DNA of 64,000 bases from Prevotella sp. (GTDB lineage: Bacteria > Bacteroidota > Bacteroidia > Bacteroidales > Bacteroidaceae), in the NCBI GenBank assembly GCA_017475265.1, contig JAFVFY010000079.1:14119-78118 (forward strand), written 5' to 3'. The position numbers and the translations under genes are program-made. This document shows, in pieces, positions 3,898-57,306 of this stretch. Each line of letters starts with the position of its first letter. The first letter of the stretch is position 1. The notes below the pieces were generated by a model. It did not search any database and was not told the DNA's origin. It saw only the letters and a list, made by a program, of their open reading frames with translations.

Positions 3898-4983
3898 ATG
3901 ACTACATACCTGTATATTAATGGAAGATTCCTGACGCAGCCCATGACGGGTGTGGAGCGCTATGCTTACAATATCTGTAAGGCGATGGCCGCTCTTCATC
4001 AATCGTTTACCATTGTGTGCCCAAAAGCACCTGTTCATCAGGACTATGATGTGAGCGACTTGAACATCGTTCATTACGGTATCGGCAACTCACACTTTTG
4101 GGAGCAGTGTGTACTTCCGTTCTTCTTCATTGGAAAAAAGAAATATCTCGTGGTCAGCTTCACAGGCTTAGGTTCTATACTGATAGGTCATAAGATGATG
4201 ACTATCCACGATTTGGCTTTTCTGAAAAATCCCTCATGGTATTCACGGACTTACTATTGGTATTACAGGTTGATGACACCTTTGGCGGTGAAAACCTCGC
4301 AGCATATCCTGACCGTCAGCGAATTCTCGAAAAGCGAGATACTCCGTTTCTATCCGTTCCTGAAAGGAGAGAAAATCAGCGTGGTCTATAATGCCATTGA
4401 CCGGCAACTGTTCAGACCATTGAACTCAGAACTTGTTAAGGGGGATTTACAATCCCCTGGTTCAGAACGCTTTGTCCTCTGTGTGTCATCCATCGACCCG
4501 AGAAAGAACTTTGCACGACTCATAGAAGCCTGCCAGGGTCTGACAGATGCCAAACTCTATATCGTTGGCAAAAACAACCGCGAGTTCAGCCAGCAAAAGG
4601 AACTGGACACTACCTCTGAGCATATTCACTTTCTGGGCAAAGTAAGCGATAATGAACTTGTTCGTCTCTATAATCAGGCAGCATGTTTTGTCTTTCCATC
4701 TCTATATGAGGGATTCGGACTCCCACCACTTGAGGCAATGGCATGCGGCTGTCCCGTGCTTGTTTCCGATATTCCAGTAGAACATGAGGTATGCGGTGAC
4801 GCTGCAATATATTTCAATCCGCTCGAATCCAATGACATTCTGCATACAATTAAACAATATTTAAACAATGCTGACGTTATAAGAGAAAAGATGCGTCAGA
4901 AAGGCTATGAAAACATCATGCGATTCTCTTGGGAAAAATCTGCAGAAGTGTTGATGAAGATTATTTCAGATAATCGTAAATGA
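3898..4983 (+). CDS. GT4 (GT-B) glycosyltransferase
   Basis: INGRFLTQPMTGVERY, TIHDLAF, PRKNF, FVFPSLYEGFGLPPLEAMACG. Confidence 0.93.
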   Translation: MTTYLYINGRFLTQPMTGVERYAYNICKAMAALHQSFTIVCPKAPVHQDYDVSDLNIVHYGIGNSHFWEQCVLPFFFIGKKKYLVVSFTGLGSILIGHKMMTIHDLAFLKNPSWYSRTYYWYYRLMTPLAVKTSQHILTVSEFSKSEILRFYPFLKGEKISVVYNAIDRQLFRPLNSELVKGDLQSPGSERFVLCVSSIDPRKNFARLIEACQGLTDAKLYIVGKNNREFSQQKELDTTSEHIHFLGKVSDNELVRLYNQAACFVFPSLYEGFGLPPLEAMACGCPVLVSDIPVEHEVCGDAAIYFNPLESNDILHTIKQYLNNADVIREKMRQKGYENIMRFSWEKSAEVLMKIISDNRK

Positions 4984-6113
4984 AGAAGACTATATTACAG
5001 ATAGCAAAATATTATTATCCTGTCGAGGGCGGCATAGAAACTGTCACCAAATACCTAGGCGAGGGGCTGACAATGTTCGAGAATGTTGTCGTATGCTTCA
5101 GCCAAGACGGTATCACGCGCATTGACATGGTCAACGGCGTCAAGGTTTACCGTATTGCGTCGTCCATGAATATAGCCAGTCAGGATATTGCTTTCTCGTA
5201 TTATCGCTACTTGAAGAAAATCATTTACGAAGAACAGCCAAACATTATTCTGCTACATTGTCCCAATCCTTTTCTGTACCCTATCGCAGCCAAGCTAACA
5301 CCCAAGAATGTTAAACTTGTCCTGTTATGGCACTCTGACATTCTTGGCAAAGGCATACTCTACAGGCTAGTCAAACAGTGTGAAAAGTCAATACTGAAGA
5401 AAGCGGACCTCATTCTAGCCACAAGTCCCAACTACATCCACCCGTCGAGTCCCATTTACGACTATCGCGAAAAGACGAAGGTAGTGCCTAACGGCATCAT
5501 CGAGAACGATTTCGTGTGGCGGACAGGCGACGAGACGATGGTAGAAGAAATCCGCCGGAAATACCTTCATAAGAAAATTGTATTCTTTGTGGGTCGCCAT
5601 ACGGCCTACAAAGGTATCAACTATCTCATCGAGGCAGAGAAGTATATTCAGTCCGACTGTGTCATCCTTATTGGTGGGCGTGGCCCTGAAACTGAACGAC
5701 TGAAAGCAAAGGCCAACTCCGACCGTATTAAGTTTATCGGACGCATTCCCAACGATTATCTGCGTTGCTACTACTATGCCTCCGACATCTTTGCCTTTAC
5801 CTCATGCACCAAGCAAGAGGCGTTTGGCATAGCGCTGGCCGAGGCCATGTATTGTGGCAGTGTACCTGTCACCTTCACCATAGAGGGGTCTGGTGTCAAT
5901 TGGGTTTCTGTGAAAGACGAGACAGGAATAGAGATACCGCTTGGCGAAGTAAAAGCATACGCAGAAGCGATTGACAAACTATTATGTGACAAAGAACTCT
6001 ATTCCAAATATGCCTCTGCTGGAAAGAACCGTATAGTCAGCATGTTTACTAGCAAACAGTCCATTATTGAAATTAATAAAATCTTCGGTCAGCTTATTTC
6101 AGATGTGGAATAA
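4980..6113 (+). CDS. GT4 (GT-B) glycosyltransferase
   Basis: KYYYPVEGGIE, GRHTAYKG, EAFGIALAEAM; overlaps the upstream stop (ATGA). Confidence 0.92.
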   Translation: MKKTILQIAKYYYPVEGGIETVTKYLGEGLTMFENVVVCFSQDGITRIDMVNGVKVYRIASSMNIASQDIAFSYYRYLKKIIYEEQPNIILLHCPNPFLYPIAAKLTPKNVKLVLLWHSDILGKGILYRLVKQCEKSILKKADLILATSPNYIHPSSPIYDYREKTKVVPNGIIENDFVWRTGDETMVEEIRRKYLHKKIVFFVGRHTAYKGINYLIEAEKYIQSDCVILIGGRGPETERLKAKANSDRIKFIGRIPNDYLRCYYYASDIFAFTSCTKQEAFGIALAEAMYCGSVPVTFTIEGSGVNWVSVKDETGIEIPLGEVKAYAEAIDKLLCDKELYSKYASAGKNRIVSMFTSKQSIIEINKIFGQLISDVE

Positions 6114-6150
6114 GTAATCCACTGACTCCATTTTGATAATTGCGGCTGCT

Positions 6151-6320
6151 GGTTACAGTTACAGTGGTTACAGTTAAAAAAAGAGGGTATGCATCTCCTT
6201 CTAATCTCTTACAATTTTATTATAACTTATTGATATATAATTAGTTATATATATAATATATATTATATAGAGGAAATGACACCCCCTCTAAAAACAACTG
6301 TAACCACTGTAACTGTAACC
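6151..6320. repeat. Perfect 25-bp inverted repeat around an AT-rich (TA)n core
   Basis: GGTTACAGTTACAGTGGTTACAGTT (6151-6175) and its exact reverse complement (6296-6320). Confidence 0.9.
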
Positions 6321-6382
6321 GCAAGCCGATAATTGTTCATCTAAAAAGCTAATAATCAATGAGATACAATATCAGTAAAAGC

Positions 6383-6702: not shown

Positions 6703-7422
6703 ATGGTAGGAGTAAGCGATATCATCTTGAACTATGCCTCCAGTCTCCCGCAGTTTTCAGTCGATGACATGCCGGTGGCTGTTACTTCAGGCATCGATAG
6801 AAACACGTTAAGCTGGCATCTGAGCAATCTGTGCCGGAAAGGTAAATTGCGCAGAGTTGGCCGTGGTGTCTATACGTCTCAGCCTGCTAATATATATAAT
6901 GTAAAGGCCAGTGCGAAAGCCCGCTCAATTTACCGGGCTTTAGCAAGTCGTTTCCCCTTTGCTGACTTTTGTGTGTACAGCGGAAGTGTCATTGCGCCAT
7001 TGTTGCATGATATGACACCGAATAACAATATGTACATAGAGACAAACCGGGAAGTGACCGAGAGCGTTTTCAATATGCTGCTGCCAAAGTATCAGGGCCG
7101 GATTTTCATTTCACCAACCAAAGAAATTGCGACCACCTATATTGACCTTGGTAAAGAGAACATCATTGTAAAGCCGCTGGTGACTGAGGCGCCCTTGGCG
7201 CTTGACGACAAGGTGCCAGTTCCGACATTGGAGAAGTTGCTTGTTGATACAAGGGTAGATGACGATTTCTACTATTTGCAGGGCTATGAGAATCTGGAAA
7301 TGCTGAGGACTGCCATAAGCCATTACGATGTGAACAAAAATCGGCTACTCAGGTATGCAGACCGCAGGAACGCGAAAGACTCAATAATAAAGGATTTAGA
7401 GACCATACAGGATAATGATTAG
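6703..7422 (+). CDS. abiEi: Type IV TA antitoxin, AbiEi-like (wHTH + DUF6577-like)
   Basis: N-terminal wHTH (LSWHLSNLCRKGKLRRVGRGVY), VPTLEKLLVD motif, overlaps the downstream nucleotidyltransferase. Confidence 0.8.
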   Translation: MVGVSDIILNYASSLPQFSVDDMPVAVTSGIDRNTLSWHLSNLCRKGKLRRVGRGVYTSQPANIYNVKASAKARSIYRALASRFPFADFCVYSGSVIAPLLHDMTPNNNMYIETNREVTESVFNMLLPKYQGRIFISPTKEIATTYIDLGKENIIVKPLVTEAPLALDDKVPVPTLEKLLVDTRVDDDFYYLQGYENLEMLRTAISHYDVNKNRLLRYADRRNAKDSIIKDLETIQDND

Positions 7423-8476
7423 GAAAGAGTGTTTTGAAGAGGAGTGGATTGGGAAAGTCTGCTCCAGCCACAGGTTCCGGCATCCCGCCTTGGTCGAGAA
7501 GGTTATCAGGGCCTTCTCGCTGCTGGAGATGCTGGCTAAGGAAGGATGTCCCTTGACATTCAAGGGAGGCACCAGCCTTCTCCTGATACTTGGCGGCAAT
7601 GCACGTCGCTTGTCAATAGACATCGATGTGCTTTGCCCTCCAGGAACGGAGATTGAGCGGTATCTGGAAAACTGCGAGAAATACGGATTTACAGTATGCA
7701 AGGCCATCAGGCGTGAGAACAGGAACGGAAATGTGCCAAAAGGACATTACAAGTCGTTCTTTGAAGTGGTTTATTCTGACCAGATTGAAGACTCTGTGCT
7801 GCTTGATGTGCTCTATGAGGACAATCACTACAGACATGTTGAGGAGAAGGTGCTGCAGCATCCCTTCATCGAGTCGGATGCGGACAGAACTGTTGTCCAG
7901 GTGCCGTCTGTTGAAGACATCCTCGCTGACAAACTAACTGCATTTGCGCCTAACACAAGCGGTGTTCCTTATTACAAGGGTACGCGCAATTTCACCATCA
8001 ATGTTGCCAAGCAGCTTCATGATGTAGGCCGTCTGTTTGATGCAGCTAACGATTTGAGTGTAGTCGCTGCAACTTTCAAAGACATAGCAGCTATCGAACT
8101 GTCATACAGGGGGAAGTCCGATGACATCAGCATCATTTATGAAGACATTAGGAACACTGCAATGGCATTGGCCACCCGAGGGAAGGTTGATACTAACGAA
8201 GATTTTGAATTGCTGAAGGAAGGCGTTGACAAACTCAAAAGCCATATCTTCTCTGGACGTTACACACTTGACAATGCCATCAGCGATGCGGCGAAGGCGG
8301 CATATCTCGCTACACTAATTGAACACGATGCCTCTGTTATTGAAAGGTATTCTGGCAACCCGTCGGAGTTGAAGGACAAAGTACTACCTTCAGTTAGTAA
8401 AGAATTGGCCAAGCTTCGTCGTGGTAATCCAGAGGCGTATTTTTACTGGATTAAGATAAGTGAACTGCTTATGTGA
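7415..8476 (+). CDS. abiEii: Type IV TA toxin, AbiEii nucleotidyltransferase
   Basis: LVEKVIRA, FKGGTSL, RRLSIDID, ILADKLTAF, KQLHD. Confidence 0.88.
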   Translation: MIRKECFEEEWIGKVCSSHRFRHPALVEKVIRAFSLLEMLAKEGCPLTFKGGTSLLLILGGNARRLSIDIDVLCPPGTEIERYLENCEKYGFTVCKAIRRENRNGNVPKGHYKSFFEVVYSDQIEDSVLLDVLYEDNHYRHVEEKVLQHPFIESDADRTVVQVPSVEDILADKLTAFAPNTSGVPYYKGTRNFTINVAKQLHDVGRLFDAANDLSVVAATFKDIAAIELSYRGKSDDISIIYEDIRNTAMALATRGKVDTNEDFELLKEGVDKLKSHIFSGRYTLDNAISDAAKAAYLATLIEHDASVIERYSGNPSELKDKVLPSVSKELAKLRRGNPEAYFYWIKISELLM

Positions 8477-8712: not shown

Positions 8713-8891
8713 AAGTTTTTGCTTCCTTTCGTTTTGCGGGTGCAAAGGTAGTAAGATTTTTTGATATGGCGAAAAAAGCGGGGGCGAAATGCTTGGAATT
8801 TATTAATTCTTAACATTAAATGCTATTTTAGCCTAATTTGTTTGTCGCAGTCAGTTTTTATTCCTACCTTTGCAGCACACATATATTAATA

Positions 8892-9800
8892 ATGATAGAA
8901 CTTGGAAAATACAACACCCTGCGCATAGACCACAGCGCAGAGCAGGGACTCTACCTGCAGGGCGACGAGGTGACGGGCGACATACTGATGCCGAGACGCT
9001 ACGTCACACCGGAGATGCACATCGGCGACGAGGTGCGCGTTTTCATTTACCTCGACCAGGACGAACGGCTTATTGCCACCACGGAGACACCCTTGGCCAC
9101 GGTTGGCGAGTTTGCCTTCCTGCATGTTGCCTGGACCAACAAGTACGGCGCGTTTCTCAGCTGGGGACTGATGAAAGACCTCTTCTGTCCTTTCCGGGAG
9201 CAGAAGCAGCCCATGCAGCGAGGCAAAGGCTACATCGTCTATGTGAAGGAGGACGAGGAAAGCCACCGTCTCATGGCCACGGCCAAGGTGGAACGCTACT
9301 TGACAGCCGCCTCAGACAAGGAAGAGAGGAGGCTGAACCACGGCGATGCCGTAGACTGCCTTATCTGGCAGAAGACCGACCTGGGCTTCAAGGCCATCGT
9401 AAGGGCTATAGACTCTAAAGACTCTATAGACTCTATAGCCACTATAGAGCCTATAGTCCCCTACTACCAAGGGCAGCTCTATGACAACCAGATATTCCAG
9501 CAGCTGCGCACCGGCGACCGCGTGACGGCCTACGTGGACCATGTGCGCCAGGACGGAAAAATTGACCTCACGCTGCAGCCTACTGGCCACCGCCACACTC
9601 TCAACTTCGCCGAGACCCTCCTGCGCTATCTTCACGAGAACGGTGGCCGTTGTGACTTGGGCGACAACAGCGACCCGGAACTCATCTACGACCGTTTCAA
9701 GGTGTCGAAGAAAGCTTATAAGCGGGCCATCGGCGACCTCTACCGCCGCCACCTCATCATCATCACAAACGAGGGCATCGCCCTTGCAATTGATAATTGA
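8892..9800 (+). CDS. cvfB: CvfB family S1-domain RNA-binding protein
   Basis: MIELGKYNTL, FIYLDQDERL, GAFLSWGLMKDLFCPFREQ, C-terminal wHTH FKVSKKAYKRAIGDLY; carries an in-frame 9-mer repeat insert. Confidence 0.9.
   Translation: MIELGKYNTLRIDHSAEQGLYLQGDEVTGDILMPRRYVTPEMHIGDEVRVFIYLDQDERLIATTETPLATVGEFAFLHVAWTNKYGAFLSWGLMKDLFCPFREQKQPMQRGKGYIVYVKEDEESHRLMATAKVERYLTAASDKEERRLNHGDAVDCLIWQKTDLGFKAIVRAIDSKDSIDSIATIEPIVPYYQGQLYDNQIFQQLRTGDRVTAYVDHVRQDGKIDLTLQPTGHRHTLNFAETLLRYLHENGGRCDLGDNSDPELIYDRFKVSKKAYKRAIGDLYRRHLIIITNEGIALAIDN
9406..9459. repeat. CTATAG-core 9-mer tandem repeat (6 units), in frame in cvfB
   Basis: ctatagact ctaaagact ctatagact ctatagcca ctatagagc ctatagtcc. Confidence 0.9.
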
Positions 9801-9823
9801 CAATTGATAATTGATAATTGACA
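9787..9823. repeat. (C/T)AATTGA heptamer tandem repeat spanning the cvfB stop codon
   Basis: caattga taattga caattga taattga taattga. Confidence 0.9.
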
Positions 9824-13915: not shown

Positions 13916-15493
13916 CTATCGTCTGATATCATAGTGGAAGGAACTGAACATCGCTTTGCCACCTTCGGTGGGTGCCGTGGTGTAGCAGAAAAGACCTATT
14001 CGCGAGCCTTTCCAGTAGCCCATACGAAGTGGGAAAGGCTTTCCAGCAGGGGTGAAACGATGTCCGTCGGTGCTGGTGGCCAGTTGGTGGAGGTTGCGAT
14101 CGCTGTCAATGGTGACACGCAGGTATACGGTCTTTTTGGTGCAGCGGCCAAGGAGGGTACGTTGGCCGTCTTGTTCCAGATAGAAGAAGAGTTTACCGTC
14201 CTTGTGGCAGATGCCCACGCCCATGAATTGCTTGCCCGTACAGAGCAGACCGGCGTGGTCGCCGTCGCGAAGGGCAGAGGCGTCGATGGTGACGGTGGCC
14301 TCGCTCTCGTAGCCTACGGTCTTTTGCGTCAACATGTTACGGCTGGCTTTCAGACTGTCGGCGGGCAGGGCGTGGAGGGTCAGCCAGCCCTGCCGCTCAC
14401 TGAGGCTCCAGGCTGAAAGGACGGGGTTGTGGTTCCACTGCCAGAGGGGGGAGAGGAAGGGGGAGGCTGTAGATTCTATAGTTTCTATAGTATCTATAGT
14501 ACCTATAGTGCCTATAGCTTCTATAGTTTCTATAGTTGTTTTCAAAGGTTTTTCCCAGACGGCCACTGGCTCGCCGATGCCATTACCGTCGATGTCTACA
14601 CCGATGAGGGGCCAGTCGTCTTTCCATCGTGCAGGTTGCAGGTGTACCACGCGGCCACGGGGATGAGTCTCCTGAAAGTGGAAAAACCACCAAGTGCTGT
14701 CGGTAGCCTCAACGAGAGCACCCTGGTGCGGTCCGTTGATATTGGTGCTGCCCTGTTCCAGAACCACACGTTTCTCGTATGGACCGTAGATGTTACGCGA
14801 GCGCAGAACCGTTTGCCAACCAGTGCCAACACCGCCCTCGGGGATGATGAGATAGTAGTAGCCGTGGCGTTTCATCATCTTCGTGCCCTCTGCCACGGGT
14901 CCGGTGTAGACCGTCACGCCATCGTCTAGCAGCTGTCTGCCGTCGGCACTCATGCGATGGATGATGATAGGACCTGCACCATACTGGCTACGCCCTAGGT
15001 AAGCCTGTCCGTCATCATCCCAAAAGGGACACGGGTCTTCCCATTTCTCCACGGCCTTGACACAGTGGAGCGGACTCCATGGGCCACGGGCATCGCGGGC
15101 CGTAGACATAAAGAGTCCCTCGTCGGGCGTACAGAAATAGATGTAGAACAGCCCGTCGTGATGGCGTATGGCCGGAGCCCATGAGCCGCCGCCATAGTGT
15201 TCGTTAGTGTCCCAGCCAGGGTAGTCGAAATGGTCGTACACCTGGCTGACCACCCGCCAGTTCACCAAATCGATGGACTCCAGCACCTGCATGCCCATGA
15301 AATGGAAGTCGGAGGCCACCATATAATACTTGTCGCCAACGCGAATGACGTCGGGGTCGCTGAAGTCGGCGTTCAGCACAGGGTTCTTGTACGTGCCGTT
15401 CAGTTGGTCGCCCCAGTCCAGTGGCTGTTGTGCCTGTGAGGCGTTGATGGGCAACATGGCCATTGCCGCCGTGAAGAGTTTTTTAGCAATCAT
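13916..15493 (-). CDS. GH43 glycoside hydrolase (beta-xylosidase/arabinofuranosidase type) with C-terminal beta-sandwich
   Basis: Signal peptide; NPVLNADFSDPDVIRVG, WAP, WEDPCPFWDDDG, AEGTK, PHQGALV; in-frame repeat insert TIETIEAIGTIG. Confidence 0.9.
   Translation of the reverse strand: MIAKKLFTAAMAMLPINASQAQQPLDWGDQLNGTYKNPVLNADFSDPDVIRVGDKYYMVASDFHFMGMQVLESIDLVNWRVVSQVYDHFDYPGWDTNEHYGGGSWAPAIRHHDGLFYIYFCTPDEGLFMSTARDARGPWSPLHCVKAVEKWEDPCPFWDDDGQAYLGRSQYGAGPIIIHRMSADGRQLLDDGVTVYTGPVAEGTKMMKRHGYYYLIIPEGGVGTGWQTVLRSRNIYGPYEKRVVLEQGSTNINGPHQGALVEATDSTWWFFHFQETHPRGRVVHLQPARWKDDWPLIGVDIDGNGIGEPVAVWEKPLKTTIETIEAIGTIGTIDTIETIESTASPFLSPLWQWNHNPVLSAWSLSERQGWLTLHALPADSLKASRNMLTQKTVGYESEATVTIDASALRDGDHAGLLCTGKQFMGVGICHKDGKLFFYLEQDGQRTLLGRCTKKTVYLRVTIDSDRNLHQLATSTDGHRFTPAGKPFPLRMGYWKGSRIGLFCYTTAPTEGGKAMFSSFHYDIRR
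14467..14538. repeat. CTATAG-core 9-mer tandem repeat (8 units, 72 nt), in frame in GH43
   Basis: ctgtagatt ctatagttt ctatagtat ctatagtac ctatagtgc ctatagctt ctatagttt ctatagttg. Confidence 0.92.
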
Positions 15494-15559
15494 GCAGCAA
15501 AAATACACTTTTCCTGGAAATAATGCAAGGAATTGCGAAAAAAGTTGTACTTTTGCAGC

Positions 15560-17117: not shown

Positions 17118-19490
17118 ATGAAAAGACTACTTCTACTATCGGCATTGGTGGCCAGCACGGTCGCCCAAGCCGAAACCATCGACACGCTGAGACTCTACAG
17201 CCTGCAGGGCGTGCAGGTGGTATCGACGCGTGCGTCGAGAAACACTCCCGTGGCCTACACCAACGTGGACGCGGCACAGTTGAAAACCCTTAACCACGGC
17301 CAGGACGTGCCCTATCTGCTGTCGCTCACGCCCTCGGTGACGATGACCAGCGACGCCGGCAACGGCATCGGCTACACATCGCTTCGGGTACGCGGTACTG
17401 ACCCTTCGCGCATTAACATCACCGCCAACGGCATTCCGATGAACGATGCAGAGAGTTCTACCGTGTTCTGGGTGAACATGGGCGACTTTGCCTCCAGCGT
17501 GCAGTCCATGCAAATACAGCGCGGTGTGGGTACGTCGACCAACGGTGCAGGTGCCTTCGGTGCCACGCTCAACATGCAGACAGAGAACATCGGCCTGAAG
17601 CCTTTTGTGGGTGTTGACCTCAGTGGCGGCTCCTACTATAGCCATAAGGAGACCGTGCGCTTCGGCACAGGACTGGGCGACGGAGGCCACTGGGGACTGC
17701 AGGGCCGACTGTCGAACATTGGGTCGAAGGGCTATCTCGACCGTGCCTCGACGAAGCTCAACAGCTATCTGCTGCAGGGTGGTTACTTCGGCGACAATAC
17801 CGTGGTGAAGTTCATCACCTGGAATGGCGAGGAGGAGACCTACCATGCCTGGAACTACACGTCGAAGTACGAGCAGAGCCTCTATGGCCGCACCTACAAC
17901 TCCTGCGGACTGATGACCACCGACGAGCAGGGCAATCCCACATCCTATTATAAGGACCAGACCGACAACTACCACCAGCAGAACTACCAGCTGCTCTGGA
18001 ACCAGCGGCTGGGGCGGCTGCTTAGTACCAACGTAGGCCTGCACTACACCAAGGGCCAGGGCTACTACCAGCAGTTCCAGAGCAAGGCCACACAGGAGTT
18101 CTACGGCTCGTCGTGGAAGAGCTTCGGCATGAGCACCACAGACGACGTGCAGGAGGACCTCGTGGACCAGCAGAAGATGGACAACGACTTCTTCGGCATG
18201 GTGGCGTCGGCCAACTACGACAACCGGCGCAACCTGCAGGCCACCCTCGGTGGCGGATGGAACCGATACAACGGAAGCCAGTTCGGACATATCGTGTGGA
18301 CAAAGCCCGGTGTCGTGACCACTGTGCCTACGCCGGCATCGCTCTCGCCAGATTTCGAGTATTACCGCAACAACTCCCGCAAAACCGACTTCAACGTTTA
18401 CGGCAAGACCACCTACCTGCTGACGCAAGGCCTCAGCGCCTTCCTGGACTTGCAGTACCGCCACGTGCGTTACAAGCTGCAAGACCCCACGGTGATGTAC
18501 GGCGTGAACACCGACGGACGCTGGGTGGTGGACAACAGCTATGACTTCTTCAACCCGAAGGCGGGCGTATCCTACGACATCACCCCACAGCACAAGGCAT
18601 ACGCCTCTTACGGCATCGGCCACAAGGAGCCCGTGCGAAACAACTTCATGCAGCAGGTGGCCAACCCCGACAGAGCCGACGCCGTAGCAAGGTCGGAGCG
18701 GCTGGGCGACCTCGAGGCGGGCTATAAGTTCCAGAGTCCGCGCTTCACGGCGGGAGCCAATGTCTACTGGATGGACTACAAGGACCAGCTGGTGCTCACC
18801 GGCGAGCTGAACGCCATCGGCGAGGCCCTGACGAAAAACCTCGACAAGAGCTACCGTCTGGGTGTGGAGGTGGAAGCTGCCTGGCAAATTCTCTCCTCCC
18901 CTAAGGAGGCGTCGGGGGTGGGTCTTCGCTGGGATGTCAACGCTACTTTCTCGAAAAACCGTGTGAAGGACATGGTGGTCACGCTCAATGATGGTAGCAA
19001 CATCAACATCGGCGACCAGCCACTGGCTTTCTCGCCCGACATCATCGTCAACAATATCCTGACCTTCACTTACGAAGGGCTGCGCGCTGCCGTGCAGAGC
19101 CAGTACGTGGGCGACCAGTACCTCACCAACACCGGATTCAAGGAGATGGAGTGCTTGGACGAGAATGGCAACGCCACCAGCGAGACGCTCCTGCTGAAGC
19201 GACACTTCAACACCAACGTTGACCTCAGCTACACCTTCAACGTTCATCGTTCAATGCTCAATGGTCAATGGTCAATGTTCAATGTTCAATCAATAACCGC
19301 TGGTGTCACGCTCTACAACATCTTCTCGGCCAAGTACGACAATAACGGTTGGGCTGCCCCACAGCTCATCCGCGCCGCCGACGGAAGCGTCAAGGCCGTC
19401 AACGAGTGGGGCATACGCGATTATGGCGCCGCCGGATTTGCTCCTTCTGCACCTTTTAACTTGATGGCACACCTGTCAGTGAACTTTTAA
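17118..19490 (+). CDS. TonB-dependent receptor, probably thiamine
   Basis: Signal peptide; plug motif LRVRGTDPSRINITANGIPMND; C-terminal ...LSVNF; under a TPP riboswitch. Confidence 0.9.
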   Translation: MKRLLLLSALVASTVAQAETIDTLRLYSLQGVQVVSTRASRNTPVAYTNVDAAQLKTLNHGQDVPYLLSLTPSVTMTSDAGNGIGYTSLRVRGTDPSRINITANGIPMNDAESSTVFWVNMGDFASSVQSMQIQRGVGTSTNGAGAFGATLNMQTENIGLKPFVGVDLSGGSYYSHKETVRFGTGLGDGGHWGLQGRLSNIGSKGYLDRASTKLNSYLLQGGYFGDNTVVKFITWNGEEETYHAWNYTSKYEQSLYGRTYNSCGLMTTDEQGNPTSYYKDQTDNYHQQNYQLLWNQRLGRLLSTNVGLHYTKGQGYYQQFQSKATQEFYGSSWKSFGMSTTDDVQEDLVDQQKMDNDFFGMVASANYDNRRNLQATLGGGWNRYNGSQFGHIVWTKPGVVTTVPTPASLSPDFEYYRNNSRKTDFNVYGKTTYLLTQGLSAFLDLQYRHVRYKLQDPTVMYGVNTDGRWVVDNSYDFFNPKAGVSYDITPQHKAYASYGIGHKEPVRNNFMQQVANPDRADAVARSERLGDLEAGYKFQSPRFTAGANVYWMDYKDQLVLTGELNAIGEALTKNLDKSYRLGVEVEAAWQILSSPKEASGVGLRWDVNATFSKNRVKDMVVTLNDGSNINIGDQPLAFSPDIIVNNILTFTYEGLRAAVQSQYVGDQYLTNTGFKEMECLDENGNATSETLLLKRHFNTNVDLSYTFNVHRSMLNGQWSMFNVQSITAGVTLYNIFSAKYDNNGWAAPQLIRAADGSVKAVNEWGIRDYGAAGFAPSAPFNLMAHLSVNF
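19236..19290. repeat. NTCAATG heptamer tandem repeat (about 8 units), in frame in the TonB receptor
   Basis: ttcaacg ttcatcg ttcaatg ctcaatg gtcaatg gtcaatg ttcaatg ttcaat encodes FNVHRSMLNGQWSMFNVQ. Confidence 0.9.
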
Positions 19491-20068
19491 TGGACTACCT
19501 TGACATTATCACAACAATACTCGGCCTGATTTACATCTGGTTAGAATATCGTGCACACATCGCTCTGTGGGTGGTGGGCATCATCATGCCCGCACTCGAC
19601 ATCGTGCTCTACTGGCAGCACGGGCTCTATGGCGACGCAGGCATGGCGTGCTACTATGTCCTGGCCGCCCTCTACGGTCTGTTCGTGTGGAAATTCAAGA
19701 AGACAAGGAAGAAGAAGGAGCCGTTGCCCATCATCCGCATGCCGCGCAGCAAGTACCTGCCCGTCGTGGTGACCTTCCTGGCGGCATGGGGCATCATCTA
19801 TTATATATTAGTGACCTGGACCAACAGCACCGTGCCCGTTCTCGACTCATTCACCAACGCCATGTCGTTTGTCGGTCTCTGGGCACTGGCACGTAAGTAT
19901 CTGGAGCAGTGGCTCTTCTGGATTGTGGTCGACATCGTTTGCGCCGTCCTCTACGTACACAAGGACATCCCCTTCAAGGCCGGACTCTACGCCCTCTACG
20001 TCATCATCGCCATTGCCGGTTATTTCAAATGGAAGCAAATGACAAAAGAAGTTCACTCTGAACCATGA
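19490..20068 (+). CDS. pnuC: PnuC-family transporter (thiamine-specific PnuT type)
   Basis: Multi-TM; LDSFTNAMS, LARKYLEQWLFWIVVD. Confidence 0.9.
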   Translation: MDYLDIITTILGLIYIWLEYRAHIALWVVGIIMPALDIVLYWQHGLYGDAGMACYYVLAALYGLFVWKFKKTRKKKEPLPIIRMPRSKYLPVVVTFLAAWGIIYYILVTWTNSTVPVLDSFTNAMSFVGLWALARKYLEQWLFWIVVDIVCAVLYVHKDIPFKAGLYALYVIIAIAGYFKWKQMTKEVHSEP

Positions 20069-35108: not shown

Positions 35109-35137
35109 CAAGGCAGAGAGAAATACCTCACAGCGAA

Positions 35138-35175: not shown

Positions 35176-35295
35176 CTATGTAAACGTTTGCACTAAAATC
35201 ATTAAAGTTTAAAGCATTAGCTAGGGACACCCCAAAAGTAATTTTCTTAATTTTGCCACGAAAAGCGACATTTATTAACTAAAAACAAAAACAAT

Positions 35296-38355: not shown

Positions 38356-38363
38356 CACAGTCA

Positions 38364-38397
38364 CCCCTGGCTCATCCAATAAGGGCTGAGCCAGGGG
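38364..38397 (+). terminator. Intergenic stem-loop (terminator or mRNA-stabilising)
   Basis: CCCCTGGCTCA / TGAGCCAGGGG 11-bp stem without a clean U tract. Confidence 0.6.
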
Positions 38398-38443
38398 AAT
38401 TATTGAAACATCTTTTTATTTTATAACTTAAATTACAACGATT

Positions 38444-43481: not shown

Positions 43482-45077
43482 ATGAATCAGGAGATAGAAC
43501 GCAGGCGAACGTTTGCAATCATTTCGCACCCCGATGCGGGTAAGACCACACTAACGGAGAAGTTCCTTCTCTTCGGCGGACAGATACAGGTGGCAGGAGC
43601 CGTGAAAAGCAACAAGATAAAAAAAACAGCCACCTCCGACTGGATGGACATCGAGAAGCAGCGCGGCATCTCGGTATCGACGTCGGTCATGGAGTTCGAC
43701 TACACCCCTCCCTCGGAGGGGACGGGGGAGGTTTATAAGGTGAACATCCTTGACACCCCCGGTCACCAAGACTTTGCCGAGGACACTTTCCGTACGCTGA
43801 CCGCCGTCGACTCGGCCATCATCGTGGTTGACGGTGCCAAGGGCGTTGAGACCCAGACGCGCAAGCTGATGACTGTCTGCCGCATGAGGAAGACGCCCGT
43901 CATCATCTTCATCAACAAGATGGACCGTGAGGGCCGCGATCCCTTCGACCTCCTCGACGAACTGGAACAGGAACTCGAAATCAAAGTCCGTCCCCTCTCC
44001 TGGCCCATTAACCAGGGTGCCAAATTCAAGGGCGTGTACAACATCTACGAGCAGAAGCTCGACCTCTTCACCCCCGACAAGCAGCGCGTGACGGAGAAAG
44101 TTAGTGTGGAGTTCGGATCCGTCGAGCTGGACGATAAAGTCGGAGAGCAGGACGCCCAGAAACTCCGCGACGACCTGGAGCTGGTGGAGGGTGTCTACCC
44201 CGAGTTCGACGTGGATACCTACCGTCAGGCCGAAGTCGCTCCTGTATTCTTTGGTTCGGCGCTCAACAACTTCGGCGTTCAAGAACTGCTCAACTGCTTT
44301 GTGGAGATAGCCCCTTCGCCCCGTCCAACGAAAGCCGAGGAGCGCGACGTGCAGCCTGAGGAGCCCAAGTTCACGGGCTTCATCTTCAAAATCACCGCCA
44401 ACATCGACCCCAACCACCGCTCGTGCATCGCCTTCTGCAAGGTGTGCTCCGGCCGTTTCCAGCGCAACCAGCCCTATCTGCATGTGCGTCAGCAGAAGAC
44501 CATGCGCTTCACCTCGCCCACGCAGTTCATGGCCCAGCGTAAGTCGACCATCGACGAGGCCTGGCCGGGCGACATCGTCGGTCTGCCCGACACCGGTGGC
44601 ATCTTCAAGATAGGCGACACGCTGACCGAGGGCGAACTGCTCCACTTCCGCGGACTGCCCTCCTTCTCGCCCGAGCTGTTCAAGTACATCGAGAACGATG
44701 ACCCCATGAAGGCCAAGCAACTACAGAAGGGCATCGACCAGCTCATGGACGAGGGCGTGGCCCAGTTGTTCGTCAACCAGTTCAATAACCGCAAAATCAT
44801 CGGCACCGTCGGCCAGCTGCAGTTCGAGGTTATCCAGTACCGCCTGGAGAACGAGTACAATGCGAAGTGCCGTTGGGAACCCGTCCACCTCTACAAGGCC
44901 TGCTGGATTTCCAGCGATGACGAGGAGGAACTCAACTCCTTCAAGAAACGCAAGTACCAGTACATGGCCAAGGACAAGGAAGGTCGCGACGTGTTTCTCG
45001 CCGACAGCGGTTACATGTTGCAGATGGCACAGCAGGACTTCAAGCACATACAGTTCCACTTCACCAGCGAATACTAG
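43482..45077 (+). CDS. prfC: Peptide chain release factor 3
   Basis: [42 protein letters not shown]. Confidence 0.97.
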
Positions 45078-45086: not shown

Positions 45087-45131
45087 CTATAGAGACTATA
45101 GAGACTATAGTAACTATAGCAACAATAGCCT
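45087..45131. repeat. CTATAG-core 9-mer repeat downstream of prfC
   Basis: ctatagaga ctatagaga ctatagtaa ctatagcaa caatagcct. Confidence 0.88.
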
Positions 45132-46561: not shown

Positions 46562-48094
46562 ATGAAAAAGAGAGCACTTCTTCTAGCCACGCTGCTCGTC
46601 ATGGCAACCGTGGCGATGGCGCAGCAAAGCATCAGCGTCAGCTACAAGGGTCAGCAGCCTGTCATCACCGATTTTGTCAATGCCATCCTCTCGCAGCGCG
46701 AGCTGAACGAGGCGTTGGACAACGTAAGGAACAACTGGAACCGCCGCCGGCTGGGACAGCAGATGGCAGAAGGCGTGGAGTTCATCGTCGATGAAAGAAA
46801 TGGCTTCGTTCGTTACGACATAGCTTACAGTCCCGCAGAGCGCAGCTGGACGGAGTTCTGCTACTGGAACTGCAACGACGGCACGCACAAGCTCGTAGCC
46901 GTAAACACTGGTCATGAGCTGCGCTTCAAGCCGGTACAGACAGAGTGCACGGGACTGACGTTCTACAGCTACGACAACCAGACGCGTACCCTTACCCCTG
47001 CCTCGGCCCACGACCTTGGAGCCTCCATCATCGTCACCCCCGTGGTGAACTACCGTCTGCCACGCCAAGGGAAGGACATCACGGCCGTCATCAACGCCAA
47101 GGACAAGCCCGTGAACATCGTCATGCACTGGGACGGCATGAAGTTCCACCAGGAGCAGACGCAGACCCCAAGCCAGACAGCTGGAGGGGATTTGCAATCC
47201 CCGACAAGAATGGTCATGAACCACGGTGTAGAGGAGGAGAAAGAGTACATCCGCGTGACTACTGCCGAGGGATTCCTTAACGCGATAGGCTCCGAGCGCA
47301 ATATCCTCATCGCCGCCGACACGGAGATAAACCTTACACCCGCATTAAACGACGCCGCCAACTTCCGCACCACCTACCGTCTGTGGATGCCCGATGCCAC
47401 AGCCATCATCAAGGGGAAGTCGTGCATAGTCAGCGAGGAGGTGTTCGACGGTCGCCAACTGACGCTCGTAGGCTTCAAGAAACTCCTCATCCGTGGTGAG
47501 CGTAACTCGCGCATCACCGTCGACCCCCGCTACGCCTTCTGCCTCCGCTTCATCGACTGCGAAGACTGCACCGTCGACAACCTCACCATCGGTCATACCG
47601 AGGGAGGCTACTGCGAGGGCGGCGTCATCGGCATCACAGGCGGGCGCAACACGATGGTCTGCAACTGCGACCTCTACGGCTGCGGCACCTACGGGCTGGA
47701 GATTGAAGGCACGGACGGCTTCAACATGTTCGCCTCGAACATCCACGACTGCACATACGGCATCATGCAGCTGCGCAGCTCGCGCAATCTGAACTTCATC
47801 CATAGCGACTTCTTCAACAACCGTGAGTTCGACCTCATCGGAAGCCTCGGCTGCGAGGGACTTTCGTTCGAGGACTGTCGTTTCTTCGCCAACTGGGGCG
47901 ACTCCCCGCTCTTCAGCATCGACAACGAGTTCCGCCTCTCGGGCTGCGCCATCTATCATCCTACGCAGAACCTGGGTACCATCGACCTGGCCAACCAGTC
48001 GGAGATAAGCAACCAGTTCTCAGAAAACCCGATTGACAATAATATTACAGGTCGCGAGATAGGTCCCGACGGCCACTGGGTACACACGAAATAA
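46562..48094 (+). CDS. Secreted protein with a right-handed parallel beta-helix domain
   Basis: Signal peptide; VTTAEGFLNAI, NLTIGHTEGGYCEGGVI, CDLYGCGTYG, NIHDCTYGI. Confidence 0.75.
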   Translation: MKKRALLLATLLVMATVAMAQQSISVSYKGQQPVITDFVNAILSQRELNEALDNVRNNWNRRRLGQQMAEGVEFIVDERNGFVRYDIAYSPAERSWTEFCYWNCNDGTHKLVAVNTGHELRFKPVQTECTGLTFYSYDNQTRTLTPASAHDLGASIIVTPVVNYRLPRQGKDITAVINAKDKPVNIVMHWDGMKFHQEQTQTPSQTAGGDLQSPTRMVMNHGVEEEKEYIRVTTAEGFLNAIGSERNILIAADTEINLTPALNDAANFRTTYRLWMPDATAIIKGKSCIVSEEVFDGRQLTLVGFKKLLIRGERNSRITVDPRYAFCLRFIDCEDCTVDNLTIGHTEGGYCEGGVIGITGGRNTMVCNCDLYGCGTYGLEIEGTDGFNMFASNIHDCTYGIMQLRSSRNLNFIHSDFFNNREFDLIGSLGCEGLSFEDCRFFANWGDSPLFSIDNEFRLSGCAIYHPTQNLGTIDLANQSEISNQFSENPIDNNITGREIGPDGHWVHTK

Positions 48095-48107
48095 TTTTTT
48101 ATTGGAC

Positions 48108-48884
48108 ATGAAATTCATAGGAATCATTCCGGCGCGCTATTCCTCTACGCGCTTTCCCGGCAAGCCGCTGGCCATGCTCGGCGGCAAGACCGTGATACAG
48201 AGAGTCTACGAACAAGTAGCTTCCGTGCTCAATTCTCAATTCTCAATTCTCAATTCCCAACCCTCCCCCGTCTGGGTAGCCACCGACGATGACCGTATCT
48301 TCAAGGCCGTGGAGGCCTTCGGCGGACATGCCGTTATGACCCGCACCGACCATAAGAGCGGCACCGACCGCATTCAGGAGGCCGCTGAGAAAATAGGCAC
48401 CACAGCCGATGTCATCATCAACGTGCAGGGCGACGAGCCCTTCATCCAGCCATCGCAGCTCGAGACCGTTTGCAGCCTCTTCGACGACCCCCGCACGCAG
48501 ATTGCCACATTAGGAAAGCCCTTCGAGACGATGGACGCCGTGGACAACCCAAACTCCCCGAAGATTGTCACCGACCTCGACGGCTATGCCCTCTACTTCA
48601 GCCGCTCCGTCATCCCCTTCGTGCGCGACAAATCTCAAGCCTCAATTCTCAAACCTCAAACCTTCCTCAAGCACATCGGCCTCTACGCCTACCGCCGCGA
48701 AGTGCTGGCAGAAATCACACGTCTGCCGCAGAGTCCGCTGGAGCTGGCCGAAAGCCTGGAGCAACTGCGCTGGTTACAGAACGGCTATAAGATACGCGTG
48801 GGCCTCACCAACGTAGAGACCATCGGCATCGATACCCCTGAAGACTTGGCTCGCGCAGAGGAAGTACTGGCAAAAAGAGCCTGA
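48108..48884 (+). CDS. kdsB: 3-deoxy-manno-octulosonate cytidylyltransferase
   Basis: IIPARYSSTRFPGKPLA, VATDD, SGTDR, NVQGDEP, KHIGLYAY, ESLEQLRWL; two heptamer inserts. Confidence 0.96.
   Translation: MKFIGIIPARYSSTRFPGKPLAMLGGKTVIQRVYEQVASVLNSQFSILNSQPSPVWVATDDDRIFKAVEAFGGHAVMTRTDHKSGTDRIQEAAEKIGTTADVIINVQGDEPFIQPSQLETVCSLFDDPRTQIATLGKPFETMDAVDNPNSPKIVTDLDGYALYFSRSVIPFVRDKSQASILKPQTFLKHIGLYAYRREVLAEITRLPQSPLELAESLEQLRWLQNGYKIRVGLTNVETIGIDTPEDLARAEEVLAKRA
48228..48255. repeat. (CTCAATT)4 in frame in kdsB; a second degenerate array lies at 48694-48722
   Basis: Read directly; encodes LNSQFSILNSQ. Confidence 0.9.
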
Positions 48885-49995: not shown

Positions 49996-50080
49996 TGGAA
50001 TTTACAATTTACAATTTATTTGTGACAGTAGTCCGTATATTGTAATACTGAACACTGTTTAGCATCTAAACTGGCTGGAT

Positions 50081-50125
50081 TTATAGACGCTATAGAGACT
50101 ATAGACGCTATAGAAACTATAGAGG
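50081..50125. repeat. CTATAG-core 9-mer repeat (5 units) in the rpsB leader
   Basis: ttatagacg ctatagaga ctatagacg ctatagaaa ctatagagg. Confidence 0.9.
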
Positions 50126-50204
50126 CTACAACTACCCGCCGGTTGATTCTAAGCCAAAGAATTAAAAAGAAAGTAAACAACCAATTAAAAGCAAAAAAAC
50201 AACA

Positions 50205-51054: not shown

Positions 51055-51185
51055 AGCCCCCTAAGTTAGGGGGTTGGGAGTCTGAACAAGCGCAGACGCC
51101 AACCCTTTGACTCCATTTAAACAATAATAACAAAACGGTCTGATAAACGCTTGTTCAGACCCCCATCCCCCTAACTTAGGGGGCT
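51055..51185. repeat. 38-bp inverted repeat pair (REP/BIME-like) between rpsB and tsf
   Basis: 51055-51092 versus 51148-51185, 2 mismatches; each arm contains the hairpin CCCCCTAA-G-TTAGGGGG. Confidence 0.9.
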
Positions 51186-51192
51186 AATAACA

Positions 51193-53899: not shown

Positions 53900-53921
53900 T
53901 TATATTTCTACCACAGATTTA

Positions 53922-54038
53922 ACGAATTACACGGAGGGGTTTTAACAACGAATTTGACGAATTACACGGAGGGGTTTTAACAACGAATTTGACGAATTAC
54001 ACGGAGGGGTTTTAACAACGAATTTGACGAATTACACG
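53922..54038. repeat. 35-bp perfect tandem repeat x3 plus a 12-nt partial copy
   Basis: ACGAATTACACGGAGGGGTTTTAACAACGAATTTG at 53922, 53957 and 53992; no spacers. Confidence 0.95.
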
Positions 54039-54949: not shown

Positions 54950-57247
54950 TTACTTAACAATGACTTTCTTTCCGTCGATAATAAACACACCCTTGCTGGC
55001 TTTCAGCATCTTCTGTCCGTTCAGGTTGTAAACCTCCGTCTGTTTATTGCTGATTAACGTACCTTCGATGTTGGTAGTAGAGCCATCGCTGAAGGCGAGA
55101 CGTGAAGGAGTAGATCCAGTAATCTCGAAGTAAGCACGGAAGCCCTTCATATAGGCCTCTTCGTTACCCTTGGCAATCTTGGCCTTATCGGTTACGCCAT
55201 ACTTACCGGCCATACCCGGGGCATCGATAGGTGCAAACGTTCCGATGAAGGAAGCACCGTCTTCTTTCGTCACTTTTCCAGCCTCAGCTGCAATTTCTAC
55301 GTCAGTGAGTTCCTTTTCAGAGAAAGCAGTCTCAACGTAAACCACGTATGGAGTGCAAGTCTCAAGGCCACCGCTCACGAGGTCGAGCTTCAGAATGTTC
55401 TCACCTTCAACGTTTTCATAGCCGGTGAAAGCGTAAACCTTGGCACCCTCGCCGAAGAACTCAGCCACATCGTCGATGGCGAAGGGCAGACATACCGTGT
55501 TGAAGCCAGCACGGAAGTTACGCTTCAGCGTCACAGTGTTGTAAGTGCCGGCCACGATAGGCTCAGAGGAGGTCTCGTCGAGCGTGTACTTCGTGACAAA
55601 CTTAACGGTCAGTTCAATGTCGTCTGCCTTGCTGCTCTTGGAGCTGGCGGTGGTGGTCTTAAGGTTGGTCAGGGTGACGGTGCCGTCGGCAGCAAACTCA
55701 TCGCCGGCAGTCAGGGTGATGGTGAACAGCACGCCGTCGTTGCCCTTGATGCCTCCCAGATAAGTGATGTTGCCTGTTCCCTCACGGTAGGTGGGGTCAG
55801 AAGCCAAACGGTCGCTCTTGGTCAGCGTGGCAGTGATGCCCTCAGGCAGTGTCAGCGTGGCCCCGAAGCCTGCGCGTGCGCGGTCGTTAGTCAGCGTCAC
55901 ATCCACGTCGACAGACTCACCGGCGGCCAGCTTAACCTCTGTCTCACTGAAGGCGAAGGCGATGTTGTCGGTACCCTTCTTCACGTTGAGGGAAATCGAG
56001 GCAGGGTTGGCAGTGATGCTGTGTGAAGAAGGTGTGGTGGCCTTCAGGTTCGACAGAATCAGAGTGCCGTCGGCAAAATCATCGCCGGCAGTTAGCTTCA
56101 GCGTGAACAACACGCCGTCCTTGCCGCTGATACCGCCAAGGTAATTGATGTTGCCATTTTCCTCATTATAGTTAGGAGCAGCAGCCAGACGGTCGCTCTT
56201 CACCAGTTCGGCGGTGACACCGCTGGGCAGCGTCATCGTTGCCTGGAAACCGCTCAAGGTACAGCCGTTGGTCAGCGTCACAGGCACCTCAACAGACTCA
56301 CCGGGAATAAGGTCGATGTCACCCTCGAAGTCGAAAGCGAACGAAGCCGTCTCTGTCTCGGGCTCAGCCTCGGGAGCGATGACAAGGGTAATGTCATCGA
56401 ACTCGTAAGGATCCTCTATGGTCTCATCTGGGTCGTAAGCCACAATATTCTTTAATGTTACTGTACCCTCACCGCTGAAACTATCTTCAGCTTTAATGGT
56501 AACTGTGAACAGAGTACCGACGTTTGCAGCAATCTCTTCAATGGTCACCTTCTTAGTACGTTTAGTATAAGTAGCACCAGTTACACCTTCAATACTTAAT
56601 CCCTCGGATGTAGCAAAAAGTGCATCAAAGCCAACCATTTTCACATTATCCTGCATAATAACCTCTACTTCAGCTGTCTTACCAGCTGCGAGGCTGAGCG
56701 TTGCGGGCGAGAAAACGATGGGTCCTGTGGTCACGGGTTCGGGAGTCACTGTAGCTGCCTCGCAGGTCACGGTAGCGTTGCCAGTCGTGGCAGCTTCCTC
56801 TGTGCCGTCGCCGTCGGTGTGCTTCACCGTGAAGTCAGAGAGCGCGATGGTCTTTGTGCCGTCAGCCAGATCGTCTGCGGCTTTCACCTTGATGGTAGCG
56901 ATGGCGCCCGACGTGCCGGTGATGGCATTCTTCACGAGGCTTGTAAGGCGGAACAGACCCGTACTCAAGTTCATGTTGATAGAGAATCCGCTGGTGCGGC
57001 TTGTCGTGGCCACCTGTGCCATGCCGCTGGAAACCACCACCTCGATACCTTCAGGCATGTCGATGGTGCCATTGACATAGTAGATATCGCTGGCATCGCT
57101 GGTGAAATCCACCTCGATGGTTTTCTCCTCGCCAGCCTTGATGCTAAAGTCGCTGATGCTCACGTTGTGGTCAGCGACGGCCATTCCTGCTTGGCCCAGG
57201 AAGAGGGCCAGCAGGAATGACAGGCGTGAAATAAACTTGTTGTTCAT
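54950..57247 (-). CDS. Scaffoldin-like secreted protein: four cohesin-like domains, C-terminal domain and T9SS-type tail
   Basis: Signal peptide; four ~120-140 aa repeats of F.I.AGE...V.V.L.N...GF.A...LP.G separated by P/E/T linkers; tail VYNLNGQK...KGVFIIDGKKVIVK. Confidence 0.75.
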   Translation of the reverse strand: MNNKFISRLSFLLALFLGQAGMAVADHNVSISDFSIKAGEEKTIEVDFTSDASDIYYVNGTIDMPEGIEVVVSSGMAQVATTSRTSGFSINMNLSTGLFRLTSLVKNAITGTSGAIATIKVKAADDLADGTKTIALSDFTVKHTDGDGTEEAATTGNATVTCEAATVTPEPVTTGPIVFSPATLSLAAGKTAEVEVIMQDNVKMVGFDALFATSEGLSIEGVTGATYTKRTKKVTIEEIAANVGTLFTVTIKAEDSFSGEGTVTLKNIVAYDPDETIEDPYEFDDITLVIAPEAEPETETASFAFDFEGDIDLIPGESVEVPVTLTNGCTLSGFQATMTLPSGVTAELVKSDRLAAAPNYNEENGNINYLGGISGKDGVLFTLKLTAGDDFADGTLILSNLKATTPSSHSITANPASISLNVKKGTDNIAFAFSETEVKLAAGESVDVDVTLTNDRARAGFGATLTLPEGITATLTKSDRLASDPTYREGTGNITYLGGIKGNDGVLFTITLTAGDEFAADGTVTLTNLKTTTASSKSSKADDIELTVKFVTKYTLDETSSEPIVAGTYNTVTLKRNFRAGFNTVCLPFAIDDVAEFFGEGAKVYAFTGYENVEGENILKLDLVSGGLETCTPYVVYVETAFSEKELTDVEIAAEAGKVTKEDGASFIGTFAPIDAPGMAGKYGVTDKAKIAKGNEEAYMKGFRAYFEITGSTPSRLAFSDGSTTNIEGTLISNKQTEVYNLNGQKMLKASKGVFIIDGKKVIVK

Positions 57248-57250
57248 TAT

Positions 57251-57306
57251 TGTCAATTTTCAATCTTCAATTTTCAATCTTCAATTTTCAATCTTCAATC
57301 TTCAAT
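57251..57306. repeat. (T/C)TTCAAT heptamer tandem repeat (8 units) between the cohesin genes
   Basis: tgtcaat tttcaat cttcaat tttcaat cttcaat tttcaat cttcaat cttcaat. Confidence 0.92.

Follow-up and report, generated by a model that had tools for sequence, protein, structure and literature searches.

A 64,000-nucleotide stretch of a rumen-type Prevotella sp. genome (assembly GCA_017475265.1, contig JAFVFY010000079.1, positions 14,119 to 78,118 of the forward strand; referred to in the following as the window) carries short repeats inside many of its genes, and is best explained as representative of the genome at large, throughout which short tandem repeats and small hairpin or foldback elements are dispersed in great number. 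Most of the tandem repeats are TCAA-NNN heptamers, accompanied by a few other units and some 9-mers and 11-mers. Surveying the window by open reading frame (ORF) listing, repeat finding and Tandem Repeats Finder (TRF), we counted 16 in-frame repeat inserts spread over 11 intact genes, with further copies overlapping gene ends or lying between genes. This agrees with a preliminary description of the same DNA, which had put the number of in-gene insertions at roughly 15, and the six repeat families named there were all found where it had placed them.

Short repeats are dispersed throughout the genome and enter many genes

The preliminary description had proposed a repeat discovery across the whole genome. 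In the 4.75 Mb assembly (135 contigs, 52% G+C), heptamer arrays were found throughout, with one detector reporting 1,063 arrays of period 7, whereas periods 8, 9 and 11 gave 88, 146 and 65 arrays, respectively. Four consecutive TCAAN3 units occur 787 times in the genome, where about 0.002 occurrences are expected; because of this excess and of the predominance of period 7 over period 8, the heptamer abundance is not a matter of chance. TRF arrays cover around 1.8% of the genome, its most frequent 13-mers are almost entirely repeat units, and four units (TCAACTC, TCAAATC, TCAATGG and TCAATTC) are each present at 70-108 loci. The 13-mer ACGTGGCCGACAT, which occurs at 49 loci, is a protein-domain repeat and separate from the short-repeat finding.

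Heptamer-type TRF arrays lie inside ORFs in 441 of 792 cases, and 354 of those are at least 90 nt away from both ends, counts that are approximate since the gene set was produced by a crude caller using ORFs and codon usage. Our own detector placed 418 arrays deep inside 254 genes (around 8%, or about 1 in 12), 89 of which contain two or more. All eight array hosts sampled with Pfam are ordinary housekeeping enzymes: cysteinyl-tRNA synthetase, glycerol kinase, adenylosuccinate lyase, class 3 fructose bisphosphatase, a pseudouridine synthase, glycine dehydrogenase, an aldehyde-dehydrogenase-family protein and an alanine symporter.

The other families are less abundant. The hairpin GGGGATT-TGC-AATCCCC, found in four unrelated genes of the window and read as GDLQSP each time, has 32 exact copies in the genome, 29 of them within genes; 19 of these 29 are in the GDLQSP frame, and all six frames are used. 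A 38-bp repetitive extragenic palindromic (REP) hairpin element is present in roughly 60-100 copies, singly or as inverted pairs, chiefly at gene ends. Both this REP and heptamer arrays of the CGTAAAT type frequently terminate just ahead of a start codon, at a distance of a few bases, genome-wide as well as at 51148-51192 of the window. Around 40 arrays form inverted pairs, some of them flanking small conserved hairpins such as ATGATTAC...GTAATCAT. Arrays of the CTATAG 9-mer number 11 in the whole genome, and four of these, at 9406-50128, fall in the window, which represents 1.3% of the genome, a local clustering.

The preliminary description had spoken of unrelated families colonising genes without breaking them. 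The repeats are indeed present in frame in intact hosts, but the families are not all unrelated, because the GC hairpins share their tail with the REP and the TCAAT heptamers belong, as a single branch, to a far larger heptamer population. The common tail, GGGGGTGGG(G/T)TCT, is found in the three GC hairpins of the window and in the 38-bp REP; a strict pattern for this G-rich tail has 16 matches in the genome, a figure that captures the common form only and is not a copy number. Copies of the GDLQSP element, which has a conserved context of about 28 nt, at times form the units of 21-nt tandem repeats.

Genic arrays are filtered for orientation and frame

Inside genes the repeat units occur almost only in the orientation free of stop codons, plainly the mark of a clear selection filter. 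AACTCTC is found 61 times in the stop-free orientation versus 5 times in the opposite one, the corresponding counts by orientation are 0 versus 21 for AACATTG and 0 versus 16 for AAATGAT, and units with stops on both strands are scarce in genes (1/29 and 4/21). Arrays in the stop-bearing orientation accumulate at the 3' ends of genes, where they supply the stop codon. Where arrays do lie in genes in the "wrong" orientation, as in the example of the IDHSPLT arrays, every third unit is changed and the TGA is lost. Such a pattern is predicted by random orientation followed by purifying selection. Arrays of TCAATGG lie inside genes in 85 of 92 cases (92%), which is above the coding fraction.

Inserts add short segments to conserved proteins

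In order to place the inserts relative to the proteins that carry them, we compared the hosts with aligned homologues or solved structures, where such were available. This comparison showed the inserts to be recent additions or replacements within otherwise conserved genes, adding 7-11 residues in loops or linkers. Window positions in the following refer to the plus strand unless stated otherwise. In kdsB (48102-48884), alignment with orthologs from the genus and the order assigns 11 extra residues to a CTCAATT heptamer array (48228-48260), while a second heptamer patch (48629-48663) stands in for a native segment of equal length (36 nt); in an AlphaFold2 model both arrays fall in low-confidence loops between secondary-structure elements. 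A TonB-dependent receptor gene (17118-19490) contains a GC hairpin with G-rich tail (18893-18930) and a TTCAATG heptamer array (19236-19290), accounting for 8 extra residues relative to three orthologs and for 9 extra residues, respectively. The same type of GC hairpin with G-rich tail adds 8 residues to radA (30105-31511; hairpin at 30535-30572) compared to the solved structure 5lkm, and 8 residues to prfC (43482-45077; hairpin at 43697-43731) compared to 3tr5. A thiamine pyrophosphokinase-like gene (20065-20724) carries a GDLQSP hairpin (20200-20216) and a CCAACAC heptamer array (20354-20374), which correspond to about 7 and to 8 extra residues relative to 2omk, and a GH43 gene (13916-15508) has an in-frame CTATAG-NNN 9-mer array (14470-14537, minus strand) that is read as TIETIEAIGTIGTIDTIETIE and lengthens the inter-domain linker by about 7 residues relative to 6mly.

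Further in-frame copies lie in a GT4 glycosyltransferase gene (3898-4983), where a GDLQSP hairpin with one mismatch (4441-4457) is located between the two Pfam domains; in cvfB (8889-9800), where a CTATAG-NNN 9-mer array (9406-9456) reads SIDSIATIEPI; and in a helicase gene (41391-43385), which carries an inverted heptamer pair, (GAGATTT)n-loop-(AAATCTC)n, at 41672-41753 and an array of GGGGAGTGAAA 11-mers at 42872-42917. The remaining two GDLQSP hairpins belong to a gene for a dockerin-bearing protein (32286-35108; hairpin at 32490-32506) and to a beta-helix protein gene (46562-48094; hairpin at 47186-47202). Palindromic insertion in frame into a conserved gene whose ORF stays intact is thus seen for the GDLQSP hairpin, the GC hairpins and the heptamer foldbacks. 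Judging from the intact frames and the stop-codon filter, the repeats are probably read out as extra loop or linker residues. This fits the earlier proposals that new peptide segments are generated, with the inserts lying in intact housekeeping genes and the hosts confirmed by Pfam, and that selection keeps in-frame loop insertions, as reflected in the stop-free orientation bias and the low-confidence loops of kdsB.

Other copies lie at gene ends or between genes. An AATTGAT heptamer array (9788-9821) overlaps the cvfB stop codon and supplies that stop. A REP-containing segment at 28883-29059 (REP at 28900-28939) remodels the end of the gene at 28069-28911 and the start of that at 28962-30044, and an array of GCCCATTAA/CCCTACTAA 9-mers (30036-30095) runs across the stop codon of the latter. 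The CTATAG 9-mer array at 45087-45129 lies outside prfC, since it begins 10 nt past the prfC stop codon and is intergenic. A 46-nt segment with (AATTTAC)3 lies 3' of the rpsI stop codon (49997-50042), an intergenic CTATAG 9-mer array follows at 50082-50128, and two 38-bp REP copies (51055/51148) form an inverted pair, with no strand assigned, between rpsB and tsf (51055-51185). A 35-mer tandem array of 3.5 copies (53917-54038) is made of ACGAATTAC-type 9-mers, and an intergenic TCAATYT heptamer array of 7.9 copies is found at 57253-57307.

Two other features of the window were noted. Paired dockerin-like repeats, DVNGDGTVDVADI, end several secreted proteins (23148-39406 and 54950-63998). At 6703-8476, Pfam identifies an AbiEi-like antitoxin (with DUF6577) paired with an AbiEii nucleotidyltransferase toxin; the pair adjoins an AT-rich spacer with GTTACAG inverted repeats (6143-6328).

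Repeat sites turn over faster than their surroundings

A metagenome contig of 94.5% DNA identity, aligned over 20.7 kb, allowed us to compare individual repeat sites with a close relative. Every indel of at least 10 nt sits at a repeat locus, and 10 of the 16 repeat loci differ while 6 are conserved. Together with the homologues described below, this shows that the repeats change more quickly than the sequence around them, often within the same small set of permissive loops, several of which hold different repeat families in different lineages. The inserts are mostly not ancestral, close relatives having no insert or another repeat at the same site.

The two kdsB sites illustrate this turnover. 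Loop 1 is empty in some homologues of 85-89% protein identity and contains a heptamer array in homologues of at least 91% identity, with variant forms in some more distant ones; other homologues have an 11-mer or GC-type insert there, or unrelated inserts. At site 2, next to a native CCTCAAG, the 36-nt native segment has been swapped for heptamers with the length kept constant, a replacement confined to this genome and one homologue of 98% protein identity and absent from the 94.5% relative. Heptamers occur at this site independently in a homologue of 75% identity, and another species has an array of about 80 nt.

In the helicase, both sites form hypervariable loops across the genus. In the 94.5% relative they are occupied by a different foldback element, AAATGAN arrays around ATGATTAC...GTAATCAT, so that at 42872-42917 a heptamer foldback takes the place of the GGGGAGTGAAA 11-mers. 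The helicase of this relative is in frame, as are the kdsB copies used in the alignments; three other helicase matches from the genus and one kdsB match have a stop codon within them and were excluded when the alignments were made. As a separate observation, an 88-nt array of 22-mers in the relative (L034:8040-8130, corresponding to about window position 43370) deletes the helicase stop codon, and the ORF then extends around 95 residues further, into the prfC start.

The hairpin sites behave similarly: the relative has a longer, different double hairpin at the radA site and a different sequence, shorter by 2 aa, at the prfC site. The GDLQSP hairpin at 32490-32506 is identical in the relative, and that at 47186-47202 has two substitutions and reads GDSQSP. 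Two 9-mer arrays differ by a single 9-nt unit, the relative having one fewer at 45087-45129 and one more at 30036-30095. The REP segment at 28883-29059 is about 135 nt longer here than in the relative and counts, with the 46-nt segment at 49997-50042 and the 35-mer array at 53917-54038, of which the relative holds the seed only, among the features absent there. The CTATAG array at 50082-50128 and the inverted REP pair at 51055-51185 are conserved. Aside from the repeats, the GH13 amylase and CBM26-like dockerin genes (35300-39245) have no DNA match to the relative; their flanks match it at 94-96%, and this position is taken in the relative by genes of like type.

The heptamers are patchy in the genus and present across the order

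Of 121 draft genomes of the genus, which the sources of close kdsB homologues identify as Prevotella in the broad sense, near Xylanibacter, 84 contain four consecutive TCAAN3 units. With 787 copies, compared to 0-397 in the others, the genome analyzed here is the extreme case of heptamer load. The dominant units differ from genome to genome within the genus. At a low level, the same pattern is found in 73 of 151 Bacteroidales genomes (nearly all one per genus). The repeats are therefore a lineage-level phenomenon, as had been suggested: genome-wide here, patchy in the genus and low-level across the order. A literature search combining Prevotella with heptamer repeats found no paper.

Origin of the repeats

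To narrow down the possible origins, we examined the ends of the arrays and the mobility genes that accompany them. On both sides of the arrays the flanks reach background within two units; no shared termini or conserved flanks were found, and the decay of the arrays is symmetric, without the polarity of telomerase- or CRISPR-like growth. This argues against classical MITEs (miniature inverted-repeat transposable elements), whose fixed terminal inverted repeats the arrays lack in the flank comparison, and against polar telomerase-like growth. In agreement with the preliminary description, Pfam scans of the doubtful ORFs in the window found no transposase. The expected correlation of repeat abundance with mobility genes was weak or lacking for the two families tested. 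Y1_Tnp, present in 65 of the 121 genus genomes, is weakly linked to the heptamer counts when any match is considered (p=0.012) and not when strong matches are used (p=0.29), both values being uncorrected for phylogeny and genome size; this test of Y1 and of REP-associated tyrosine transposases (RAYTs) counted heptamers rather than REPs, and repeat-rich genomes without a Y1_Tnp match exist. RVT_1, present in 53 of the 121 genomes, shows no association with the heptamer counts (p=0.32). Several of the repeat-richest genomes have neither. Of the two outcomes that the preliminary description had regarded as speaking against it, most inserts proving ancestral is contradicted by the turnover described above, and counts being unrelated to mobility genes holds in part, for these two gene families.

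The RAYT-like gene of this genome (C37:7392-7733) was rejected as the cognate of the window REP because it is flanked by a different REP, which is absent from the window. The region around this Y1 transposase gene (C37:7092-8033) contains inverted copies of its own REP (…GGGCGACAGATTACAGACGGGGGTG…), of which there are about 4 copies in the genome.

The outcome of these tests (flanks, Y1_Tnp, RVT_1 and the REPs flanking the RAYT-like gene) leads us to favour an origin intrinsic to the host, which we give an even chance of being correct: slippage and template switching would create the repeats, and selection would keep the copies that are in frame, free of stops and located in loops. No dedicated transposase would be needed, the repeats arising from the replication and repair of the cell itself. 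Slippage would alter the copy number of the units, and template switching or microhomology-primed copying from arrays elsewhere would seed new sites or overwrite old ones, a form of copying that would homogenise the unit types within one genome. Selection would then purge copies that break the frame, bring a stop codon or strike structured parts of a protein. Consistent with such an origin, TCAA heptamers occur in 73 of the 151 Bacteroidales genomes and 84 of the 121 genus genomes, the dominant units varying by genome, and neither Y1_Tnp nor RVT_1 is required for them.

Several observations weigh against this account. Slippage alone cannot explain how the same few units came to lie at hundreds of sites where relatives lack them, and the ectopic copying that would put them there is conjectural; the 46-nt insert at 49997 includes 25 nt of non-repeat sequence for which no other copy was found in the genome. 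The roughly 40 arrays that form inverted pairs around small conserved hairpins look like elements, the 92% genic share of TCAATGG is far beyond what would remain after random insertion filtered for frame and orientation, and the conservation of the TCAA core across the order hints at a sequence-specific factor. The gene-content tests, moreover, were made on draft genomes and cover two gene families. The TCAA core, the foldback composites and the genic bias of TCAATGG keep a trans-mobilised element or a sequence-specific factor in play.

The first of these, somewhat unlikely in our estimation although the strongest competitor, would be non-autonomous elements resembling MITEs, REPINs (pairs of inverted REPs) or small dispersed repeats (SDRs), with heptamer arms and moved in trans by a transposase encoded elsewhere, which may belong to an unrecognised family; the pure arrays would then represent degraded or incomplete copies. 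Such elements would account for identical units at hundreds of loci, for the inverted array pairs around conserved hairpins, for the one composite element that the relative carries at two helicase sites and for the conserved context of the GDLQSP hairpin, and the weak Y1_Tnp association points the same way. IS608-type HUH transposases cleave at TTAC and TCAA, and both tetranucleotides occur in the hairpin cores and heptamers. However, shared termini are absent from the arrays, whose decay is symmetric, neither Y1_Tnp nor RVT_1 is present in several of the richest genomes, the RAYT-like gene is flanked by another REP of only about 4 copies, and the constant-length replacement of 36 nt in kdsB is unlike an insertion.

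A more speculative possibility, which we regard as doubtful, is that a sequence-specific activity of the Bacteroidales writes or copies TCAA-NNN arrays and other short units into gaps or breaks. It would have run away in some rumen Prevotella, with a preference for genes, and would steadily generate and rewrite loop peptides in around 8% of the proteome.

That the arrays are instead retained because they are useful, as flexible linkers, surface variation, frame-shifting contingency switches or, outside genes, leader and terminator signals, appears improbable. The excess of TCAATGG inside genes would suit this explanation, and so would the position of CGTAAAT arrays and REPs directly before start codons, which resembles that of the TAACTGA repeats upstream of start codons in Beggiatoa (PMC4679880). 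In addition, each 7-nt unit shifts the reading frame by one, and the 22-mer array abolishes the helicase stop codon in the relative. On the other hand, the hosts include cytoplasmic housekeeping enzymes, which it would be harmful to switch off, the aligned kdsB copies and the helicase of the 94.5% relative are in frame (the three helicase matches and one kdsB match with stops being left out), the content of the sites is not conserved between close relatives, and the inserts sit in low-confidence loops.

Telomerase-like writing of the units into breaks, with a short RNA as template and a reverse transcriptase or some other templated polymerase as the enzyme, is very improbable: pure tandem units without flanks, unit types specific to each genome and RVT_1 matches on three contigs of this genome would fit, but RVT_1 is unrelated to abundance, having no match in 5 of the 10 richest genomes and being present in 10 of 28 array-free ones, and array decay has no polarity.

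Relation to known repeats and significance

Dispersed heptamer repeats have been known since 1990, with a mechanism lacking. Heptamers are the commonest long simple-sequence repeat (LSSR) of prokaryotes, for which polymerase slippage was proposed (Mrazek 2007, as summarised in PMC4679880). The families described include TAACTGA of Beggiatoaceae, cyanobacteria and some Bacteroidetes (PMC4679880), GGGAATC of Xanthomonas and GGGGAYT of Nostoc (PMC4692102), as well as the short tandemly repeated repetitive (STRR) sequences of Calothrix, as cited in PMC4692102; these dispersed families are chiefly intergenic and their origin is unexplained (PMC4679880, PMC4692102). The repeats described here resemble the LSSR and STRR sequences in consisting of at least three tandem 7-nt units above chance expectation, with one or a few sequences at tens to hundreds of dispersed loci, copy numbers that change between strains and a patchy phylogeny. 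In both, no transposase or cause is known and stop codons restrict the orientation within genes. They differ in that the known repeats are mainly intergenic and under-represented in ORFs, whereas here ORFs hold over half of the approximately 1,000 arrays, and around 8% of genes are affected (441 of 792 TRF arrays; 85 of 92 for TCAATGG). Furthermore, several unit families coexist here with 9-mers, 11-mers and hairpins, and arrays are swapped at the same loops between close relatives.

Similarities extend to three further systems. Rickettsia palindromic elements (RPEs) were reportedly found by Ogata et al. in 2000 to be inserted in frame in conserved genes. These elements, reviewed in PMC10969869, are likewise small palindromes that add surface segments to conserved proteins in frame and have no transposase of their own. 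The likeness is one of description: RPEs form defined families of around 100-150 bp, whereas the elements here measure 17-100 nt and in many cases are nothing but tandem arrays, in a free-living member of the Bacteroidota from gut or rumen. As in REP/REPIN-RAYT systems (PMC3116915, PMC3733652), the 38-bp hairpin occurs singly or as inverted pairs, mostly at gene ends. In contrast to those systems, the RAYT-like gene found here is flanked by a different REP rather than its cognate, and relatives of the hairpin lie in frame within radA, prfC and the TonB receptor. Cyanobacterial SDRs are said to be nested in heptamer arrays (Elhai and colleagues, in 2008). The ATGATTAC...GTAATCAT and GACTTTAC...GTAAAGTC composites, whose very small hairpin cores are likewise flanked by heptamer arrays, are similar by description, in another phylum and with other sequences.

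The Prevotella repeats thus belong to a known but unexplained class, whose entry into coding sequence is unusually extensive here. The genome, which has about 1,000 arrays, some of them within essential genes, and close relatives that differ from it at most repeat loci, offers a tractable system for finding the mechanism. The repeats show one way in which bacterial proteins acquire short loop segments and swap them at a high rate. Indel-rich "hypervariable loops" and seeming frameshifts, when met in Prevotella genomes or metagenome bins, are often the result of repeat turnover, and the arrays could act as strain markers.

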